A stretch of DNA of 64,000 bases. It comes from Candidatus Hydrogenedens sp. (GTDB lineage Bacteria > Hydrogenedentota > Hydrogenedentia > Hydrogenedentales > Hydrogenedentaceae). The stretch is from positions 64,001 through 128,000 of the forward strand of contig JBMFRC010000003.1 in assembly GCA_049968235.1 (NCBI GenBank), given 5' to 3'. Shown in pieces: positions 1-27,299 of the stretch. The notes below the pieces were generated by a model that had not been told where the DNA came from, made no database searches, and worked only from the letters and a program-made list of their open reading frames with translations. Every line of letters begins with the position of its first letter. The stretch's first letter is position 1. Made by a program: the position numbers and the translations under genes.

Positions 1-204
1 TAATCCGATAATAAAGCCCAGAATATAGTTTGTGGCACGTGTCGGGTCATCCAGTTGATTTATTCCCTTTTCGATTGCGGGCTGGCTATAAAAAAAACCA
101 GCAATGAGTATCATGAGCATCCCATAGCCAATAATCAGTCCTGTTAATGTACGGAACCAGTAGCGTCGGGTGATAATCCATCCACGTATTATCTCTGCTT
201 TCAT
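1..204 (-). CDS. ABC-2 family transporter permease, N-terminal part (gene runs off window start)
   Basis: ATG at 204 on minus strand; translation MKAEIIRGWIITRRYWFRTLTGLIIGYGMLMILIAGFFYSQP... is hydrophobic; immediately downstream of ABC ATPase in same orientation; weak SD. Confidence 0.4.
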   Translation of the reverse strand, partial: MKAEIIRGWIITRRYWFRTLTGLIIGYGMLMILIAGFFYSQPAIEKGINQLDDPTRATNYILGFIIGL

Positions 205-229
205 AATGAGTAGAAAACCAAGCATGATA

Positions 230-1309
230 TTATTCCTGTTCTTGTGAATTTATCGCATCAAATACGGGTTTTTCACCTGTAAGTTGTAAAAAGACATATT
301 CCAGATTTACCTGTTTTTGTTGTATGGAGCGTAATTGATATTTTTTCCTACGAAGTGTTTCAAATAGAAGATATAATGCTTCTGACCGTTCTTCATACGG
401 TTCCGGTACCTGCACCGTAATTGTAGGACCATCCGCCGTCAGGTCTGATTGGAGAAAAATAATCTGCGGACCAAGAGCATCGAGGTCCCCATCTGCCAGG
501 TTACGGTCTAATCGCAGGGAAAAGATTTGTTTTGAAAATAGTTCCAGCAGTTCAGAAGTAGGTTTGCAGGTAATAAGTTTTCCCTTGTTAATAATTCCAA
601 TACGATCACAGAGTTCTTGAGCCACATGCATATCATGAGTAGTAACCAGCACAGAACGACCATATTTTCGGGTCAGTTCCAGAATTTTGTCTTTAATGGA
701 GCGACTGCTTTGCACATCCAGACCCGTAGTAGGTTCATCTAACAGAATAATTTTGGGGTCAGCAATCAGAGCGATGCATATCGCTAATTTTTGCTTCTGT
801 CCTCGTGATAGTTTGCGAACTTCTATGTCTTTTTTGTCATTCAACCCGATAAAATCAAGTAGTTGATGGGCTCTTTCTTTGAGGATTTTTCCGCGAATAT
901 TTCGCAAATTTCCATAATAATAAAGATTTTCAAGAGGTGTCAGGGGCCAGATACTGGTTCGTGTTCCTTCAAGCACAACGCCGATTTGTGAAAGGACCTG
1001 TTTCCGTTTCTTTTCTACATTCATCCCATCCACATAAACTGTTCCACTATCCGGTTTTACTAGTCCTGAAATCATTTTTACCGTGGTTGTTTTTCCAGCA
1101 CCATTGGGACCCAATAATCCCATAATTTCACCGGGCATAATACCAAAAGTAATTTTATCTGCTGCACATGCTTCTTTCTTTTTTATTAAACTCCTCTTAC
1201 CTGTTTCCTCGTCTTTATAAAGAAAGTGAGATGTGTGAAAGGTCTTTGATACCGCATCAAGATAAACCGTATATTTTTTTATATTTGTATTCAATTCATT
1301 TTTATACAT
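230..1309 (-). CDS. ABC transporter ATP-binding protein with C-terminal extension
   Basis: Walker A GPNGAGKTT, ABC signature LSRGQKQKL, Walker B ILLDEPTTGLD; start overlaps stop of upstream CPBP gene (TAATG). Confidence 0.9.
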   Translation of the reverse strand: MYKNELNTNIKKYTVYLDAVSKTFHTSHFLYKDEETGKRSLIKKKEACAADKITFGIMPGEIMGLLGPNGAGKTTTVKMISGLVKPDSGTVYVDGMNVEKKRKQVLSQIGVVLEGTRTSIWPLTPLENLYYYGNLRNIRGKILKERAHQLLDFIGLNDKKDIEVRKLSRGQKQKLAICIALIADPKIILLDEPTTGLDVQSSRSIKDKILELTRKYGRSVLVTTHDMHVAQELCDRIGIINKGKLITCKPTSELLELFSKQIFSLRLDRNLADGDLDALGPQIIFLQSDLTADGPTITVQVPEPYEERSEALYLLFETLRRKKYQLRSIQQKQVNLEYVFLQLTGEKPVFDAINSQEQE

Positions 1310-2007
1310 TATGAAACTCCACCTCCTTCAAATAATGTCCTTTCTAATTCGTCCATACATTTATCGGGGTCATTTATCTCCTGCAACTTGTCTAAATACT
1401 CAAGGTAATTGCTTTCCATATTACGAATGAAATGTAGAATTGTTACAAAACCCAGGTCATTTGTAACATGGTAAAGAATGCTTATGATAATAGAGAATAT
1501 CAAAAATTCGATGTTCTGGCGTAGTTGATTTTGAAAAATATGTTCATGCACCAATGTAAAAGTGAGGGATACGATAAGAATCGCAATAGCGGGACTTCCC
1601 ATTATCCCTATCAGAATAGGTTGGATTGTAGCCCGATAAATAATCTCCTCTGTAAGTGCAACTGTAAAAGTCTTTCCTAATAACACCGGCGAAAGAAATG
1701 AGAAACGGAACACCTGTAAAAAGGATAGAAATTGATTTTTTACAATAGAATTAAAGCCTACTGTAATAAGAAATCCGATGGTATATAAAATATGTCCCAA
1801 TACTAATCCCACTATCCAATTAGGCACGAAAAATAAATTTCTGGGGAGTATTTGCTGGATAAATAGATAAAAAATCGCACAAATAAGTAAAAGGGATTGA
1901 ATAATTTTTACAATTGTAGTTAATTTCTGAATCTGGAAAAAATTGCGACATAATTCCAGCAGGAAATTCAAGGAGAAGAGGACTACAAGAATTATTTTGA
2001 TATTCAC
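1309..2007 (-). CDS. CPBP (CAAX/Abi) family intramembrane metalloprotease
   Basis: Multi-TM protein with EExxxR motif (TEEIIYR) and His motifs (LVHEHIF) typical of CPBP; 4-nt ATGA overlap with upstream GNAT. Confidence 0.7.
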   Translation of the reverse strand: MNIKIILVVLFSLNFLLELCRNFFQIQKLTTIVKIIQSLLLICAIFYLFIQQILPRNLFFVPNWIVGLVLGHILYTIGFLITVGFNSIVKNQFLSFLQVFRFSFLSPVLLGKTFTVALTEEIIYRATIQPILIGIMGSPAIAILIVSLTFTLVHEHIFQNQLRQNIEFLIFSIIISILYHVTNDLGFVTILHFIRNMESNYLEYLDKLQEINDPDKCMDELERTLFEGGGVS

Positions 2008-2624
2008 GAAGACTTCTCCAGATAATTCTTTATGCTTTCAGCCATTTTTTGTAGTGTAATTTCCCTTGTATGTTCGGTATTTTTTTCACGCCAGATTTGA
2101 AACTCCTGTTTTAATAATCCGTAAACATAAACATCATGCCAGACCCCGTTTCGTGTAATGTGTTCCTTTAGTGTGAGTTCTCGTTGGGCACCGAGAAATT
2201 CCAATAATTTCCATGATGGTTTATTGAAAGCATAAATAATAGCGGTAATGCGGTGTAAATTGAGTTCATCAAACGCATATTCCAATGCACGAAAAACATT
2301 AATTCCTGTCGTCAAATGATTCCGATGTTCCGGTGCTATATATACATCCAGATTGCAGGAACGATTCCGCCAGCTGATATTTTGTAGTGAAATCATTCCT
2401 AAAGGACCCTCCGGTGAATCAACGATGAAATATACACCAGCAGGGATAGGACTACCTGTATTTTTACTTAAAAACCCGATAATCTGTTCGCGAATAGTTC
2501 TTGGAGAACGGGCAGGGTCACCATACAGGAAGTATTGAAAATCTTCATCTTCCATCCAGCGGATAAGTGTGTCGAGGTCATCGCGGTCTGCTCTGCGGAT
2601 AAAAGATTTTGTAATAATACTCAC
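2004..2624 (-). CDS. GNAT family N-acetyltransferase (RimJ/RimL-like)
   Basis: RimL-like pattern ...ITAIIYAFNKPSWKLLEFLGAQRELTLKEHITRNGVWHDVYVYGLL; co-oriented in operon. Confidence 0.7.
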   Translation of the reverse strand: MSIITKSFIRRADRDDLDTLIRWMEDEDFQYFLYGDPARSPRTIREQIIGFLSKNTGSPIPAGVYFIVDSPEGPLGMISLQNISWRNRSCNLDVYIAPEHRNHLTTGINVFRALEYAFDELNLHRITAIIYAFNKPSWKLLEFLGAQRELTLKEHITRNGVWHDVYVYGLLKQEFQIWREKNTEHTREITLQKMAESIKNYLEKSS

Positions 2625-2637
2625 GAAAAACCCCTTC

Positions 2638-3183
2638 TTATTTCAATTCGACCGACAAAGTATTACTATTTTGAAATTTTGCCCATGTCTCAAGATTATG
2701 CCATTTCCCACAGGTGAATAGCACCTCTCGCATACATCCTTCACATTGATATGAATGATTTAATAGAAAGTTTCGCAGTCTTTCTTCCACATCCAGACAG
2801 GTTGTCATTAATTTTCTTAAATGGAGTTGTTGAAATGCCCGCACCTCAATAAATTCTAATGCTTCACCAATCAGAGCGGATTCATTATCGTAGGTCTCAT
2901 TTTCAAACAGGAGCATCATCTCCCCAAAAAGTGCCTCCGCATTTATCCCTTTTAGGATAACAAAGCCGGAAATATCTCCAATTTTATTTTCAACAGCATA
3001 AAAGGACTGAGCAGTATCTTTATGTTGAAGAAGTTCCTCCAACTCACTTAGATTGGGCATGAGCGGTTCTCGTTTCGTATCCAGCAGGGTGGCAAAGATG
3101 GGTTTGTGCAGGTAAAAACGGAGCAGTTCTTTTGCATCAAAACGGTCCGCATTGCGAATAGTCGCATAAGTCTTTTTTATCAT
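2638..3183 (-). CDS. GNAT-like N-acetyltransferase (divergent second copy)
   Basis: C-terminal half ...LRKLMTTCLDVEERLRNFLLNHSYQCEGCMREVLFTCGKWHNLETWA resembles RimL-type GNAT C-terminus; 13 nt from next GNAT. Confidence 0.5.
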   Translation of the reverse strand: MIKKTYATIRNADRFDAKELLRFYLHKPIFATLLDTKREPLMPNLSELEELLQHKDTAQSFYAVENKIGDISGFVILKGINAEALFGEMMLLFENETYDNESALIGEALEFIEVRAFQQLHLRKLMTTCLDVEERLRNFLLNHSYQCEGCMREVLFTCGKWHNLETWAKFQNSNTLSVELK

Positions 3184-3280
3184 ATAGAAAGGTTATATCC
3201 CGCAGTTAAAATTACACGCTTCCATGCCCTAAAATGGCATGAAGACAACTGAAAAAATCCCTGCTTATAATAACGAAAAG

Positions 3281-3400
3281 TTAAAAGCCAATTTCGTTTT
3301 TCTTTTCGTAGCGGAAATCCTGCCAGGCTCGCCACACCGCATTAAAAAAGTTTGTAAAGGCATCAGCTTTCCGTAATGTCAACTTTTGAATGTGCTTCAT
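3281..3400 (-). CDS. small peptide P1 (39 aa) MKHIQKLTLRKADAFTNFFNAVWRAWQDFRYEKKNEIGF; member of tandem paralogous peptide family
   Basis: Not in ORF track (<60 aa). Found by manual translation of minus strand; N-terminus MKHIQKLT matches the conserved motif of the three neighbouring small ORFs. Confidence 0.4.
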   Translation of the reverse strand: MKHIQKLTLRKADAFTNFFNAVWRAWQDFRYEKKNEIGF

Positions 3401-3451
3401 GTTCTTATTTCCCATATTACAAGTTTTAGGTGTTAATATATAAAAATTTAT

Positions 3452-3652
3452 TTAACTGCTTGAAGAGGTTGTTGTAGTAGTTGTTGTCCCGGTGCTCGGC
3501 AATGGAGACTCCGGGTCCTTATTCTTGAAAACAGGAATAAAAATTTTTATTATATCTTCAATAAATTTTATTATATTAACTGTGGTATAGGGGAAATCAC
3601 TCGCGGATAGGGGTTGAGTTATCTTCTGAATATGTATCTTATTACGCACCAT
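3452..3652 (-). CDS. small peptide P2 (66 aa from ATG 3652; track ORF uses GTG at 3661) ending ...STGTTTTTTTSSSS
   Basis: Contains KIHIQKIT near the N-terminus, which aligns with MKHIQKLT/MKHIRRLT/MKRIQCIT; hydrophobic middle; 11-residue Thr/Ser C-tail. Confidence 0.45.
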   Translation of the reverse strand: MVRNKIHIQKITQPLSASDFPYTTVNIIKFIEDIIKIFIPVFKNKDPESPLPSTGTTTTTTTSSSS

Positions 3653-3884
3653 ACTTCCCACTTCCGTCCAATGTTGAGGTATCTTCTGTATTTCTCGTTT
3701 CGAGTAAAGTTCGAACTGCTGTCAATATCTGAAGAAAAATTGTCAAAATAACATCAATCGTAACCGCTTGAACAGGTCTACTGTATGTCTGTCTTTTAAT
3801 ATGTTTCATAAAAATACCTTTAAACTATAAATCTATTATACTAAATATAAAGTATTTTACAAACTACAAAGATTCTGTATCTTA

Positions 3885-4070
3885 CTAACTGGTCGTAGTA
3901 TTTGTTGTTTCCTGAGGTTTTTTTACTTCCGCTAAAGGCAAGAAGAAATTTGTAAGCACAGAAAGCAAAAAACAAAGAAATGCCTGATAATCACTTGTGA
4001 TATTTGTGCAAAAGTTAGAACTTTGCTGTGCCCTTGATGGTTTAACAGTGATACATTGGATTCTCTTCAT
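3885..4070 (-). CDS. small peptide P3 (61 aa) MKRIQCITVKPSRAQ...FLCFLLSVLTNFFLPLAEVKKPQETTNTTTS
   Basis: SD GGAG 9 nt upstream; N-terminus is homologous to P4 (MKRIQCITVKPSRAQ vs MKHIRRLTATLHKAQ); Thr-rich C-tail. Confidence 0.45.
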   Translation of the reverse strand: MKRIQCITVKPSRAQQSSNFCTNITSDYQAFLCFLLSVLTNFFLPLAEVKKPQETTNTTTS

Positions 4071-4094
4071 TATTTCTATCTCCTTTTATTTAGA

Positions 4095-4250
4095 CTACGA
4101 AGAAGAGGAGGTGCCTCCTTCTTTAGCGACAAAAGCCTGAGCGACGACAGATAAAATATTCGCAATCAGGGTTAATATCTGTCCAATACTCAAAGTTGTC
4201 TCTATTTGTGCTTTGTGTAATGTGGCGGTTAATCTTCTTATATGTTTCAT
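4095..4250 (-). CDS. small peptide P4 (51 aa) MKHIRRLTATLHKAQIETTLSIGQILTLIANILSVVAQAFVAKEGGTSSSS
   Basis: Manual translation; lies out of frame inside track ORF 4123..4338; SD GGAG upstream; amphipathic/hydrophobic middle; SSSS tail; paralogous N-terminus. Confidence 0.45.
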   Translation of the reverse strand: MKHIRRLTATLHKAQIETTLSIGQILTLIANILSVVAQAFVAKEGGTSSSS

Positions 4251-4475
4251 TTTCCAACTCCCGTATATTGGTTATAATATTATCTAATATAGAATATTGT
4301 TTACATTCTATTTCATTACAGATTTCTTTTAATATCATATATTAATTTAATACCAAATTACATAAAAAAGTTTTCCCTTTCCACCTCATAATAACACGGA
4401 ATTATAAGATATATTTTACAAAATAAGAAGCAATATAGGAAATATTTAACAGAATTTAAGTATATCAATAACTTT

Positions 4476-7001
4476 TTATTTCTTTAATCGAGCACTGCTC
4501 ATCATAAATAACAATATACCGATAAATATAAAATCAAACAGATATTTCAATAAGGAATTGTTGTTTAAGGATTTGTTTATACAGCCACAAACATTTGTTG
4601 CTCCAGTTTCTTCCTTACTGATATTTCCATCACCATTCGTATCTATTTGATTAAATATTTCATGGGTTAACCATGGATACACAATACTTAACTCATCCCA
4701 ACTTAACATATTATCGCCGTTCGCATCAAACAATGAAAACCGTTTCTTGAGTATATTCTTTAATTCCTTTAATGTCATTGGACATGTACCCGCAGAAACC
4801 GTAATATTAACTACTGATTCCGGCTCTACCTGAGTTCCTGCGGGTGGATATTGAGTTATGACATTGCCTGTAGCTATGTCATTACTACACTCCTGGGTAA
4901 CATCCCCAACCTTCAGGTTTGCAGATTTTATAACATTTTTTGCAGAATCCTGGTTCATACCAACTACATCCGGAACCACATTTAATCCGACATACTGAGA
5001 CACTAATTGTGGATAAGATTTATTTTCTTTTATATACCATACTTTTTCAAAATCCCAACCATTAAAAGTGGCTTGCTGTTTCATTTTTGCCGTTGTTTTA
5101 CCCGTGCCACCTGCAGAATTTTTTTGTCCGGAAGTCTCTGTGTCCCAATATGAATTACTTACCGTACCGGAATGGTTATATCCCAAAAGCCCCCCAATAT
5201 ACGAAGCCCCGGAAGAATTGGACACAGAACCTGCTGAATAACAATAATTTATTGTGCCTCTATAATTTCCACCTACCAGTCCACCACTGTATAGAACTCC
5301 TGAAACAGACCCTATGGCATAACAGTTGCTAATTTCATTATTATTCTCACCTACCAGACCACCAACATTTATATGTCCCTGAGTTGTAACCTCCGCACAA
5401 CAACTACTTGCCTTACCCGAATTTGAACCTATTGCCCCACCAATAGAACTATATCCTGTTACAGACCCCTCTGCATGACAACCACTTACTGTACCATAAT
5501 TCTGACCTGCTAATATGCCTATAGAAGAAATATTCGTATCCCCGGAAACAGAACCTTTTGCATGGCAATTACTCACAGTACCATAATTTCGTCCTATTAA
5601 TATACCGACGGAAGTGGAAGTAACAGAAAGAGTATTTGTATGTCCTGATACGGAACCTTCTACATAACAATTACTTACTGTGCCATAATTTTGTCCTGCC
5701 AATATACCCACGAAAGAAGAACCCGCGACAATAGCATTTTCTATACTTAAATTTTTAACCACACCTTTCATATCAATATAGCCAAAGAAACCAACATAGT
5801 TTTCAGAAGGACGATTTATCGTTAGACCAACTATTTTATGCCCTTTACCATCAAAATTGCCTTTGAATGGATGCTCTTTATCTGCCCCTATAGGAGGCAA
5901 ATCTATTCCTGCAACATTAATATCATTAATTAATTCATAATCGCCATTCAAAGGATAAATGTCCCCTATCTTTTGCAATTCCCCGACATTATCTACAAGG
6001 ATAGTCCCCGGATTAATATTTCGCAGGAAAGGATATTGATATGGATAGGAATACACATCACTGCTGACATAGATTCTCCAAACTGTTTCAAAATCCCAGC
6101 CCACATAAGTGTTCTTTAATTTCATTTCTTCCGCTGTTTTCCCTGTTCCCCCATCAGAAGCACTCTGTCCGGATGCTATTATGTCCCAGTAACAATTACT
6201 AACATAGCCACTTTCTTTCTTTGCAATAAGCCCGCCTGTTATATGTTCTTCCGTTGAAGTCGCTGTTGACCGAACAGTTCCTCGACAATAACAATTAGTT
6301 ACACCATTTTCATTGCTGTTATTGTAGCCAATAAGTCCCGCAACATAATTCTTCCCTGTAATAGAACTTGAACTGTAACTATTATCAACAGAGCCTATAT
6401 TTTCACCTATCAATCCGCCAACACGATTTATTCCTGTTATAGATGCAAGATTATAACACTGACTTACTGTTCCCAAATTTTGACCCGTAATACCGCCAAC
6501 ATAATCCGTTCCTTTTACCGTTCCGCTGTTAACACAACTCTGTAATACTACACCGAAATTCCGACCGACAATCCCACCAACATTTGAATTACCTTTAATT
6601 GATATATTTTCTAAACGGAGATTATGGACTTTCCCACCAGCATCAACATATCCAAATAATCCAATATCATCCTCATCTCCCCGCGATATAACAAGACCTT
6701 TTATCTTATATCCTTTGCCATTAAAATCACCTGTAAAAGGACTATTAAATGTTCCTATGGGTTTAAACCCCGCTTTATCATTCCAGGTCGATGTGCTACT
6801 TGCGTCAATATCTTCTGTCAATTCATATTCCGCACTTAACGGGTAATTTGCATCATTACCTATTTTCTGTAATTCCTCAATACTGTTTATCTGGATTACA
6901 GTTGCACCATAACTGTTTCCGAAATAGAAACTCATGCAAAAAATAAAAAATAAACAAAAGGGGAAATATATGGTCTTTTTTGAAAAACTTCGATTATTCA
7001 T
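4476..7001 (-). CDS. large secreted surface protein: duplicated N-terminal module + GLUG-type (VGG[IL]xGxNxGx[IV]xNCY) repeats + PASTA domain + two dockerin/EF-hand-like Ca-binding loops + C-terminal TM anchor
   Basis: Signal peptide MNNRSFSKKTIYFPFCLFFIFCMSFYFGNSYG with strong SD (AAGGAG) before ATG at 7001; repeats GGIVGRNFGVV..C, VGGLIGENIGSV; PASTA-like VVPDVVGMNQDSAKNVIKSANLKVGDVTQE; DANGDNMLSWDEL and DTNGDGNISKEE; C-terminal FDFIFIGILLFMMSSARLKK. Confidence 0.7.
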   Translation of the reverse strand: MNNRSFSKKTIYFPFCLFFIFCMSFYFGNSYGATVIQINSIEELQKIGNDANYPLSAEYELTEDIDASSTSTWNDKAGFKPIGTFNSPFTGDFNGKGYKIKGLVISRGDEDDIGLFGYVDAGGKVHNLRLENISIKGNSNVGGIVGRNFGVVLQSCVNSGTVKGTDYVGGITGQNLGTVSQCYNLASITGINRVGGLIGENIGSVDNSYSSSSITGKNYVAGLIGYNNSNENGVTNCYCRGTVRSTATSTEEHITGGLIAKKESGYVSNCYWDIIASGQSASDGGTGKTAEEMKLKNTYVGWDFETVWRIYVSSDVYSYPYQYPFLRNINPGTILVDNVGELQKIGDIYPLNGDYELINDINVAGIDLPPIGADKEHPFKGNFDGKGHKIVGLTINRPSENYVGFFGYIDMKGVVKNLSIENAIVAGSSFVGILAGQNYGTVSNCYVEGSVSGHTNTLSVTSTSVGILIGRNYGTVSNCHAKGSVSGDTNISSIGILAGQNYGTVSGCHAEGSVTGYSSIGGAIGSNSGKASSCCAEVTTQGHINVGGLVGENNNEISNCYAIGSVSGVLYSGGLVGGNYRGTINYCYSAGSVSNSSGASYIGGLLGYNHSGTVSNSYWDTETSGQKNSAGGTGKTTAKMKQQATFNGWDFEKVWYIKENKSYPQLVSQYVGLNVVPDVVGMNQDSAKNVIKSANLKVGDVTQECSNDIATGNVITQYPPAGTQVEPESVVNITVSAGTCPMTLKELKNILKKRFSLFDANGDNMLSWDELSIVYPWLTHEIFNQIDTNGDGNISKEETGATNVCGCINKSLNNNSLLKYLFDFIFIGILLFMMSSARLKK

Positions 7002-7534
7002 CAAACAGCTCCTTGTTATTAATAAAATTACATGCAATAAACGCAATCAAATACATAGCTCTATTTCGCAATATATCTCTTTTAATTTATAAAATATCTT
7101 GTTGCCTCGGACTATCTTTGTATTTTAATAAGAAAGAGGCAATCCGCTTAAAATTTAAAGAAATACTATCATAGTATTATTGAATAATATAATTCTATTT
7201 TCAACATTTTAGAGTGATAATGAAATGTTAAAACAAACAAAATATTAACGGCATCTTTTGTGTCTCCGCTGACTGAATATAAAAAGATGAGCAAATAAGA
7301 AAAAGTTGTATTGTTTATAAGATAAAATCATTACGCATGTTATAAACGGTATTGTTATTTTATAATATAATTCCCGCTGTTCGTTGATAATACTATGATT
7401 ATTTCATACATGCTATTACCATACGGTCATTGGGAAAGATAGTTCAGGTTGCAATTTGATAATCACATAGAATTGAAATTACACTTATTACAGATTTTTT
7501 GTGTTCTGGAAAGTTAAATATAAGGAATGGGAAA

Positions 7535-27137: not shown

Positions 27138-27213
<76 letters not shown>

Positions 27214-27223
27214 ATTTTTTTAT

Positions 27224-27299
27224 AGGGCCGTTAGCTTAGCTGGTAGAGCAGGGGACTCTTAATCCCAAGGTCGCAGGTTCGATTCCTGCACGGCCCACC
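27224..27299 (+). tRNA. tRNA-Lys (anticodon CTT)
   Basis: Near-identical backbone to E. coli tRNA-Lys as recalled (GGGTCGTTAGCTCAGTTGGTAGAGCAG...GGTCGCAGGTTCGAATCCTGC...CCACCA); anticodon loop CTCTTAA. Confidence 0.85.

Follow-up and report, generated by a model that had tools for sequence, protein, structure and literature searches.

An operon of leader-bearing peptides, GNAT-fold proteins, a CPBP protease and an ABC-2 exporter in Hydrogenedentota as a candidate peptide maturation and export system

Bacillus operons of the skf, subtilosin alb and yydFGHIJ type encode a peptide precursor together with a radical S-adenosylmethionine (rSAM)/SPASM protein, a membrane protease, and the ATPase and permease of an ATP-binding cassette (ABC) transporter, and in the case of SkfC the protease is of the CPBP type. 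A system with the same operon logic was found in Candidatus Hydrogenedens sp. of the phylum Hydrogenedentota, where ORF (open reading frame) calls and the reading of the junctions reveal a tight series of small and larger genes on the minus strand at positions 1-4250 of a 64,000-nucleotide stretch of contig JBMFRC010000003.1 (in the following called the window), which continues past the window edge. Five peptide genes (pep1 to pep5) are followed by the genes of two proteins with the fold of GCN5-related N-acetyltransferases (GNAT1 and GNAT2), a CPBP protease, an ABC ATPase and an ABC-2-type permease, and the sixth protein gene of this series codes for a 613-residue fusion of an RRE-like domain (RRE, recognition element of RiPPs, peptides that are ribosomally synthesised and modified post-translationally), a radical-SAM-like barrel, a SPASM region and a third GNAT domain. 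The whole operon is compact and comprises eleven genes. Unlike the Bacillus systems, it has an apparently dead rSAM module, added GNATs and five different precursors, and it is phylum-wide and not strain-specific. It is proposed here, with moderate confidence and on grounds of sequence and predicted structure, that the operon is a hallmark of the Hydrogenedentota and matures and exports peptides in the style of RiPP pathways, and that in it leader-guided acyl transfer, leader removal by the CPBP protease and export by the ABC-2 transporter would be combined.

The 613-residue protein resembles the maturases CteB (sactipeptides), ScfB (SCIFF), PapB (ranthipeptides) and QhpD, with which it shares an RRE, a partial barrel and a SPASM region as well as the location of its gene in an operon with short precursors. 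It differs from them in that its family has no CxxxCxxC motif and keeps only four of the seven SPASM cysteines invariant, and in that it carries two new invariant cysteines in an RRE strand (FCFECD) and a C-terminal GNAT domain. SCIFF and its maturase in Clostridia are a RiPP-type pair that is taxon-wide and has a conserved core, which implies a housekeeping role, and the Hydrogenedentota system resembles this pair in the taxon-wide conservation of core and maturase. SCIFF, however, is a single cysteine-rich peptide with an active rSAM enzyme and has no GNAT, CPBP or ABC-2 partners.

For other parts of the system there are precedents as well. In Staphylococcus aureus, the CPBP/Abi protein MroQ has been shown experimentally to remove the N-terminal membrane-associated leader of AgrD before export (PMC9388083). 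By this likeness, the CPBP-family protease of the Hydrogenedentota may also be a leader remover, but the gene of MroQ lies outside the agr operon, cyclisation of AgrD is the task of AgrB, and neither a GNAT nor a SPASM protein is a partner there. Acylation of a ribosomal peptide at an amine by GNAT-fold enzymes is known from MdnD of microviridin, GodH of goadsporin, acetyltransferases of lasso peptides such as PDB 9iy3, and the selidamide acyltransferases, and in Foldseek the fused GNAT domain has 9iy3 as one of its structural neighbours. In contrast to these enzymes, three GNAT modules co-occur in the Hydrogenedentota operon, two of them without the coenzyme A (CoA) loop and one fused to an RRE/SPASM scaffold, and no specific sequence relationship of the modules to RiPP GNAT tailoring enzymes was found. 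Finally, the phenol-soluble modulins of staphylococci are small amphipathic helical peptides that need the ABC-2-type exporter Pmt, to which the helical peptide set and the dedicated ABC-2-type exporter of the system are alike; the modulins have no leader, protease or tailoring enzymes.

In the libraries scanned, no curated RiPP class or family model corresponds to the gene set, and the system has no specific counterpart among the families of NCBIfam, Pfam or PADLOC, which agrees with the original prediction, made from the window alone, that it does not belong to a known class. A literature search on RiPP or SPASM systems of Hydrogenedentota and on combinations of GNAT, CPBP and SPASM genes found no description of such a system, and no database name was found for it either. 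It falls outside the definition of every family with which it was compared; the logic of leader-guided peptide maturation and export is itself already known. Part of the argument for novelty had been that no canonical maturase such as an rSAM enzyme is present. This is true of the window only, as the CteB-like RRE/rSAM/SPASM protein, which lacks the rSAM cysteines, ends the operon beyond the edge, and the premise is therefore an artefact of the window edge and the argument fails.

Peptide families and their linkage to the enzyme genes

The sole feature common to all five peptides of the window is an N-terminal motif. Its consensus in 128 distinct peptides is M(92%) K(82%) H(90%) [IVL] [RK] x [IVL] [ST] x x [PKR] x x A(66%), and the leader has a net charge of +3 to +4, with the rest of each peptide near neutral or acidic. 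In outline, the short leader of each precursor precedes a conserved helix, transmembrane or amphipathic, and then come a conserved lysine and a polar tail. Pep1 to pep3 contain transmembrane-grade helices, with a Kyte-Doolittle mean over 18 residues above 2.0 (2.17 in pep1), and pep4 and pep5 contain strongly amphipathic helices with a hydrophobic moment of 0.64-0.69 (0.69 in pep4). Pep1 is built from the leader MKHIRRLTATLHKAQ, the helix ILTLIANILSVVAQAFVA, a conserved lysine and a Ser/Thr tail, and its orthologues at 26 loci have the conserved core GQILTLIANILSVVAQA..AKE. In pep2, with orthologues at 24 loci, the leader MKRIQCIT is accompanied by two conserved cysteines (C..SDYQAxLCF), a hydrophobic helix and a Thr-rich tail beginning with KKPQE. 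Pep3, with the leader MKHIKRQT and the hydrophobic helix VTIDVILTIFLQILTAV, is found at 11 loci, mostly of the genus Hydrogenedens. Pep4 has the leader motif KIHIQKIT after a short N-terminal extension, an amphipathic helix, an NKDP motif and a Thr/Ser-rich tail, and as 2-7 residues precede the motif in pep4 of the genus Hydrogenedens, the motif is not bound to the extreme N-terminus. The most universal peptide of the system is pep5, present at 48 of 48 peptide-bearing loci, with the core ADAFTNFFNAVWRAWQDFRYEKKNE and the family pattern ADAFTNFxNAxWRAWxDFRYxKKNE, which includes invariant residues. In pep1 and pep4, no core residue is better conserved than the lysine directly after the helix. 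Cysteine is absent from four of the five precursors.

Profile searches assign each window peptide to a family with orthologues elsewhere, always on the same strand and just upstream of GNAT1. As is typical of RiPP systems, short precursors with a common leader are thus encoded beside processing genes; the pattern of a conserved leader with variable cores is not found, since the five cores are unlike one another and yet each of them is kept as an orthologue throughout the phylum. A reading of the peptides as Sec-type signal peptides, with a cationic N-region, a hydrophobic region and a tiny mature tail, was rejected, the helices being the conserved part of the peptides and the tails the variable part. 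With pep5 as query, the protein database returned only five unannotated clusters, which means that gene callers mostly miss these peptides.

The distribution was studied with one genome per GTDB species. The 613-residue protein, which is annotated in Candidatus Hydrogenedens, has 191 relatives in this set, and the best 80 of them are nearly all labelled Hydrogenedentota or Hydrogenedentes; the remaining labels among these 80, which are other or uninformative names of metagenome-assembled genomes, are taken, unchecked, as mislabels. Wherever the contig is long enough, the order GNAT1-GNAT2-CPBP-ABC-permease-SPASM/GNAT recurs, in about 80 genomes at the species level, with 35 textbook cases by a crude calling of the longest ORFs. 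Of the other loci, some are truncated, some belong to GC-rich genomes in which over-long ORFs fuse the genes, and some have an extra GNAT2-like gene, which lies between GNAT1 and GNAT2 (L017, L026, L027, L039, L053, L071 and L082, at about 3900-5400 in each), and in this last group only pep5-type peptides occur, one or two per locus.

Peptides and enzymes were found to be linked in both directions. Anchored on the enzymes, leader peptides (from one to five or more) are encoded upstream in 48 of the 56 loci that have at least 1.2 kb of sequence before the first GNAT gene. Anchored on pep5 in metagenome contigs, GNAT1 follows 35-453 nucleotides downstream in all 33 testable loci, and GNAT2 comes next wherever the sequence sufficed. 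Such a reciprocal linkage, together with the gene order recurring across the phylum, is more than chance, and it bears out the earlier claim that peptides and GNAT, CPBP and ABC genes form one conserved unit. A conserved synteny of the GNAT genes without the peptides, which had been named as the outcome that would speak against a functional link, is largely not what is seen (48/56 loci for the peptides, 33/33 for GNAT1-GNAT2).

Scaffold, GNAT modules, protease and exporter

The end of the operon became accessible through GenBank contig JBMFLO010000144.1, which carries the identical ABC ATPase sequence, is 99.96% identical to positions 1-2547 of the window and extends past its edge. There, the complete permease gene encodes a membrane protein of 279 residues with about six hydrophobic segments, and the gene of the 613-residue protein (L001 3331-5172) overlaps it by 1 base. 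In NCBIfam, residues ~229-425 of this protein match the SPASM regions of the SCIFF, PapB and QhpD maturases (E 1e-14 to 1e-10), with scores of 54.6 bits (not_ScfB, cut-off 855), 52.5 bits (SCIFF maturase, cut-off 425) and 40.3 bits (PapB, cut-off 340) that stay far below the family thresholds, and residues 10-94 match the N-terminal region of RumMC. An AlphaFold2 model based on 20 homologues (mean predicted local distance difference test, pLDDT, 77.7) shows an RRE-like pattern at residues 7-73, consisting of strands 7-12, 15-20 and 26-29 and then three helices, followed by a beta/alpha barrel (98-300), the SPASM region (317-418) and a C-terminal alpha/beta domain (441-612). Foldseek aligns the first 430 residues with CteB (5wgg, E 2.9e-12, 466 columns), and also with TigE, 5why (E 2.3e-11) and 8vpo (E 8e-9), and the C-terminal domain with the acetyltransferases SpeG, RimL and ArsN. 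The overall fold of RRE, beta/alpha barrel and SPASM region is thus present, and the leader-recognition domain of the RRE/PqqD type is recognized at the level of the fold only.

The cysteine pattern departs from this fold. No CxxxCxxC is conserved in 20 family members, nor is any cysteine at residues 95-310. Invariant are C26 and C29 (FCFECD, in the third RRE strand), C367, C370, C376 and C399, so that of the seven SPASM cysteines the two of the first auxiliary cluster and the fourth of CX2CX5CX3C are lost. The maturase-like protein, which has diverged to 25% identity within the phylum, therefore appears to be radical-dead as judged from its residues. Among 1.84 billion representatives searched, the nearest outgroups (P0187, P0188 and P0194) are ordinary rSAM/SPASM enzymes of 450-490 residues with CNLRCxYC. 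A sister family (P0173, P0175 and P0178) has the same GNAT fusion, no radical-SAM cysteines and all seven SPASM cysteines, and its genes also follow CPBP-ABC-ABC2 genes (L086 2-4271, L087 128-3247). In L087, glycosyltransferases and methyltransferases come next, and the contigs of both loci end short of any region of peptide genes. Another relative, P0193 (656 residues), is rSAM/SPASM-like without CxxxCxxC and has a C-terminal peptidase motif of the S24/S26 type (GDSMLP) and no GNAT, which suggests that dead rSAM scaffolds have repeatedly been reused to deliver peptides to other catalytic domains.

Of the two separate GNATs, GNAT1 matches the Pfam family Acetyltransf_4 (28.9 bits, cut-off 24.3, E 1.4e-6) and GNAT2 Acetyltransf_3 (60.4 bits, cut-off 25.4, E 4e-16), which also matches 10 of 18 members of the GNAT1 family. 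The closest solved relatives of all three modules, by PDB sequence or profile searches and by Foldseek, are SpeG-type spermidine/diamine acetyltransferases: the GNAT1 family profile finds SpeG (4jjx, E 9e-10), the GNAT2 model (pLDDT 85) finds 8fv1 (E 2.5e-16, target-normalised TM-score 0.85), and the fused domain finds 4mj8 (E 2e-7), with YdaF, RimJ/RimL-family and AAC(6')-like enzymes ranking after SpeG. SpeG acts on a primary aliphatic amine similar to a lysine side chain; in contrast to SpeG, to which they are 24-25% identical, the modules have a different pyrophosphate loop and belong to a peptide operon instead of polyamine metabolism. Scores against the equivalog models are an order of magnitude under the cut-offs, with 21.4 bits for GNAT2 and RimJ (PRK10809, cut-off 190), 14.6 bits for GNAT1 and RimL (PRK10151, cut-off 184) and 28.2 bits for SpeG (PRK15130, cut-off 218). 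The description of these GNATs as RimL- or MccE-like was thus imprecise; MccE is absent from the PDB matches of the GNAT2 sequence, the GNAT2 profile and the GNAT1 profile, and no MccB-like gene is present in any locus examined. No other protein of the operon is as strongly conserved as GNAT2: the 120 listed of 323 clusters show at least 50% identity, and in 46 sequences 44 positions are invariant, including the N-x-x-S segment that is typical of the RimJ/RimL-SpeG branch.

The protease belongs to the CPBP/Rce1-like glutamic intramembrane protease family: it matches PF02517 (42.7 bits, cut-off 22.4, E 7e-11), has about 6-7 hydrophobic segments and contains the motifs EExxxR, FxxxH and HxxxN (TEEIIYR, FTLVHEH and HFIRN), which are conserved in 43 sequences. 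The ABC ATPase (ABC_tran, E 4.5e-31) has an intact Walker A (GPNGAGKT), signature (LSRGQKQ) and Walker B (ILLDEPT). Its best NCBIfam match is DrrA, with 240.7 bits under a subfamily cut-off of 312, and it matches the lantibiotic-protection ABC family TIGR03740 with E 2e-38, below the cut-off. The permease has no direct Pfam match, and its family aligns with an ABC2_membrane_3-carrying protein at an hhalign probability of 99.9%. ATPase motifs and a separate permease with six transmembrane segments make this an ABC-2-type exporter of the DrrAB/NodIJ-like kind. A class II bacteriocin system with C39 processing is not indicated, as Pfam finds no peptidase domain in the ATPase and the leader has no GG/GA site. 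An anti-phage Abi or other defence system was considered and rejected: PADLOC gave only generic ATPase matches for the ABC protein and no match for the CPBP protease, the GNATs, the permease or the 613-residue protein.

Gene layout and surroundings

The features of the window are listed in the table. The original prediction had placed two GNATs, a CPBP protease and both ABC components at 230-3183, and this interval does contain four complete genes on the same (minus) strand, those of GNAT1, GNAT2, the CPBP protease and the ABC ATPase; the permease gene starts outside of it, at 225. The peptide array lies immediately 5' of GNAT1 in the same orientation, as had been stated. The genes are joined by small gaps or overlaps: the start of pep4 overlaps the end of pep3 by 11 nucleotides, the spacer from pep5 to GNAT1 has 97 nucleotides, the gap from GNAT1 to GNAT2 has 13 nucleotides and includes GAAGGGG, and only 4 nucleotides separate the ABC ATPase from the permease. 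Of the two overlaps described before, TAATG at the CPBP stop and the ABC ATPase start is correct, whereas the presumed ATGA is in fact a GTGA that the GTG start of the CPBP gene shares with the stop of GNAT2.

Features of the operon in the window (positions count from the first nucleotide of the window)
Feature	Position	Strand	Description	Basis
pep1	4095..4250	-	51-residue precursor	ORF
pep2	3885..4070	-	61-residue precursor	ORF
pep3	3642..3809	-	55-residue precursor	ORF
pep4	3452..3652	-	~66-residue precursor, ATG at 3652	ORF
pep5	3281..3400	-	39-residue precursor from the leader-consistent ATG at 3400; alternative ATG at 3415	
Hairpin, 8 bp	3221..3243	-	in the pep5/GNAT1 spacer	
GNAT1	2638..3183	-	181 residues, SpeG-like GNAT fold	
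GNAT2	2004..2624	-	206 residues, GTG start, SpeG-like GNAT	
CPBP/Rce1-like glutamic intramembrane protease	1309..2007	-	232 residues, GTG start	
ABC ATPase, DrrA/NodI-like	230..1309	-	359 residues	
ABC-2-type permease	1..225	-	first 75 codons of 279 residues; gene cut by the window edge	

The hairpin between pep5 and GNAT1 has the arms UUCAUGCC and GGCAUGGA and no U-tract, and the minimum free energy of the region is -21.7 kcal/mol (z = -1.8). A role in the processing or attenuation of the mRNA, by which the ratio of precursor to enzyme transcripts could be set, is conceivable, and this stability gives weak and marginal support for it. In the spacer between pep2 and pep3, at 3835-3862 on the minus strand, a sigma-70-like sequence (TTGTAA, a spacer of 16 nucleotides, TATAAT) matches 10 of 12 consensus positions and could be an internal promoter of the array, in a scan that as a whole did not exceed the shuffled background. 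No additional leader peptides were found elsewhere in the 64-kb window.

The operon lies in an ordinary stretch of chromosome with housekeeping genes and without any sign of mobility. The surrounding 60 kb encode ComEC, an M48 peptidase, LemA, cytochrome bd, PolA, transketolase-like proteins and two tRNAs, which as adjacent genes at 27139-27297 (plus strand) are the only Rfam matches in the window. Directly upstream of the array, at 4476-7046 on the minus strand, lies the gene of an 856-residue protein that has hydrophobic termini and combines GLUG repeats and EF-hand motifs with a PASTA domain. This gene was rejected as a part of the system because it is not conserved beside the cassette; the same applies to a gene pair for a PHP-like protein of 295 residues and a protein of 73 residues upstream in other Hydrogenedens loci. 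At the other end, beyond the window edge, the operon is followed by the gene of a multihaem c-type cytochrome (L001 5590-6644; Cytochrome_C7, MtrC/MtrF-like and NapC/NirT-like matches). In Ca. Hydrogenedens terephthalaticus (L006, AWNW01000047.1, 1-8000) the cassette is present in two convergent halves, with ABC-permease-SPASM/GNAT on one strand and pep1-5-GNAT1-GNAT2-CPBP on the other, and this split reflects either a genuine inversion between the CPBP and ABC genes or an assembly error.

Proposed pathway, alternative explanations and significance

In the proposed pathway, the RRE-like domain of the 613-residue protein would bind the K-H-I-x-x-I-[ST] leader, and the protein would be an Fe-S scaffold of a non-radical kind, on which the peptides are offered to the GNAT modules. 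GNAT2, perhaps together with the degenerate GNAT1 and the fused GNAT, would then move an acyl group, most simply acetyl, onto a peptide amine. The acceptor might be the conserved lysine after the helix, in line with the action of SpeG-type enzymes on aliphatic amines, or else the N-terminus newly formed by a cleavage near the conserved alanine. On the cytoplasmic side of the membrane, the CPBP protease would cut off the cationic leader, as MroQ does in the case of AgrD, and the ABC-2 transporter would extract and export the hydrophobic product; the loss or neutralisation of the positive charges would plausibly make the helix free for export. A more far-reaching version holds that the pathway defines the phylum, that the dead leader-binding Fe-S scaffold with its GNAT and the two SpeG-like GNATs acylate all five peptides, and that these are trimmed by the CPBP protease and exported by the ABC-2 transporter so that a conserved structure of the envelope or membrane is built or maintained. 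This can be put forward only tentatively, and if it holds, the products would be housekeeping modified peptides and not antibiotics.

Several observations weigh against the proposed pathway. The conservation of the cores throughout the phylum is atypical for RiPPs, the 613-residue protein has no Pfam PqqD match, so that its RRE is recognized from fold and secondary structure, and in bacteriocin loci the role of CPBP proteins is often that of immunity factors and not of leader peptidases. The acetyl-CoA pyrophosphate loop of GNATs is canonically R/Q-x-x-G-x-G/A. In GNAT2 it reads R-x-x-h-x-[AGT] (h, hydrophobic), with the arginine and the small residue kept and the central glycine replaced, GNAT1 has the acidic D-Y-x-x-P-L-A-x-E in its place, and in the fused GNAT no such motif is recognized by eye. 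As GNAT1 and the fused GNAT lack the loop, they are probably non-catalytic GNAT-fold partners, and GNAT2 is probably the one enzyme and the likeliest acyltransferase, so that from the two acetyltransferases originally envisaged one probable enzyme is left. The scan for promoters and terminators does not help either, as its 23 promoter-like sites, with 17.3 expected, are not above background and uninformative. Finally, 8 of the 56 loci have no adjacent peptide, namely those of a subclade in which the cassette follows mnmE and some in GC-rich genomes. In that subclade the cassette starts directly after mnmE (L003 5509-6172, L058 186-1637, L073 2730-4196) in the neighbourhood rpmH-yidC-jag-mnmE near the replication origin, and the 17-22 kb examined contain no leader peptides. 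The 613-residue proteins of the peptide-less loci keep the FCFECD strand, and the peptides may therefore be encoded elsewhere.

It has also to be considered that the peptides form a multi-peptide bacteriocin or cytolysin, membrane-active and directed at competitors or prey, in which case the CPBP protease and the ABC-2 transporter would mainly confer self-immunity and the GNATs would detoxify or cap the peptides. The hydrophobic or amphipathic helical cores of 25-45 residues are indeed like those of class II bacteriocins and phenol-soluble modulins, and the below-threshold match of the ABC ATPase to TIGR03740 points in the same direction. Abi/CPBP genes are classic immunity or regulatory genes of bacteriocin loci, an example being SilX (PMC9298176). 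Nevertheless this explanation is unlikely, as five orthologous cores beside a maturase of 25% identity are the opposite of an arms-race diversification, there is neither a double-glycine leader nor a C39 peptidase, the context is one of housekeeping genes without signs of mobility, and nearly all of the sampled species genomes contain the system. The phylum-wide orthology of the cores argues against a typical strain-variable bacteriocin, and together with the housekeeping context it makes a conserved physiological or envelope role likelier than strain-level antagonism. Still less probable is that generic housekeeping acetyltransferases for ribosomal proteins or polyamines lie beside unrelated small ORFs, which is what generic Pfam GNAT matches and SpeG-like folds alone could suggest. 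This is strongly disfavoured to the point of being nearly dismissed, given scores far under the RimJ, RimL and SpeG cut-offs, the strict two-way synteny with leader peptides, the overlapping or tight junctions of the GNAT genes with the CPBP and ABC genes, and a third GNAT that is fused to an RRE-bearing maturase scaffold.

The other alternatives concern the chemistry. There may be no covalent tailoring at all, the GNAT-fold modules and the pseudo-rSAM protein being chaperones or adaptors in a pathway that only cleaves leaders and inserts or exports fixed small membrane proteins. The lost radical-SAM cluster motif, the missing or non-canonical CoA loops of all three modules and cores conserved as in structural proteins would suit this improbable reading, but the degree of conservation of GNAT2 with its invariant positions and N-x-x-S is seen more often in enzymes than in adaptors, and at some loci a further GNAT2-like gene has even been acquired. 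Divergent CoA-loop motifs may also indicate that something other than acetyl is transferred, either by long-chain acylation as in selidamides and goadvionins or by an aminoacyl-tRNA-dependent addition like that of Fem or L/F-transferases. N-myristoyltransferase and FemX-type enzymes are examples of several GNAT-fold modules that cooperate, and membrane-helix peptides with a DrrA/NodI-like exporter for lipophilic molecules would suit lipopeptides. As, however, the cassette has no acyl-ACP, acyl-CoA ligase or tRNA-related gene and the closest structural relatives are short-chain acetyltransferases, such a chemistry is considered quite improbable, more so than the absence of any tailoring.

The Hydrogenedentota (formerly NKB19) are a widespread candidate phylum and to our knowledge uncultured, and a conserved eleven-gene operon shared by almost all of the sampled genomes offers a way into their cell biology. 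The 613-residue protein would be a clear natural example of an rSAM/SPASM maturase that is reused as a non-radical scaffold, and the sister family with the GNAT fusion and the relative with the S24/S26 peptidase fusion suggest that such reuse is recurrent. The operon links SpeG-type GNATs to ribosomal peptides and adds a further candidate case of a CPBP protease as leader peptidase. If the peptides are acylated as proposed, they would form a new class of RiPPs with conserved instead of hypervariable products, which would bear on the role of housekeeping RiPPs such as SCIFF.

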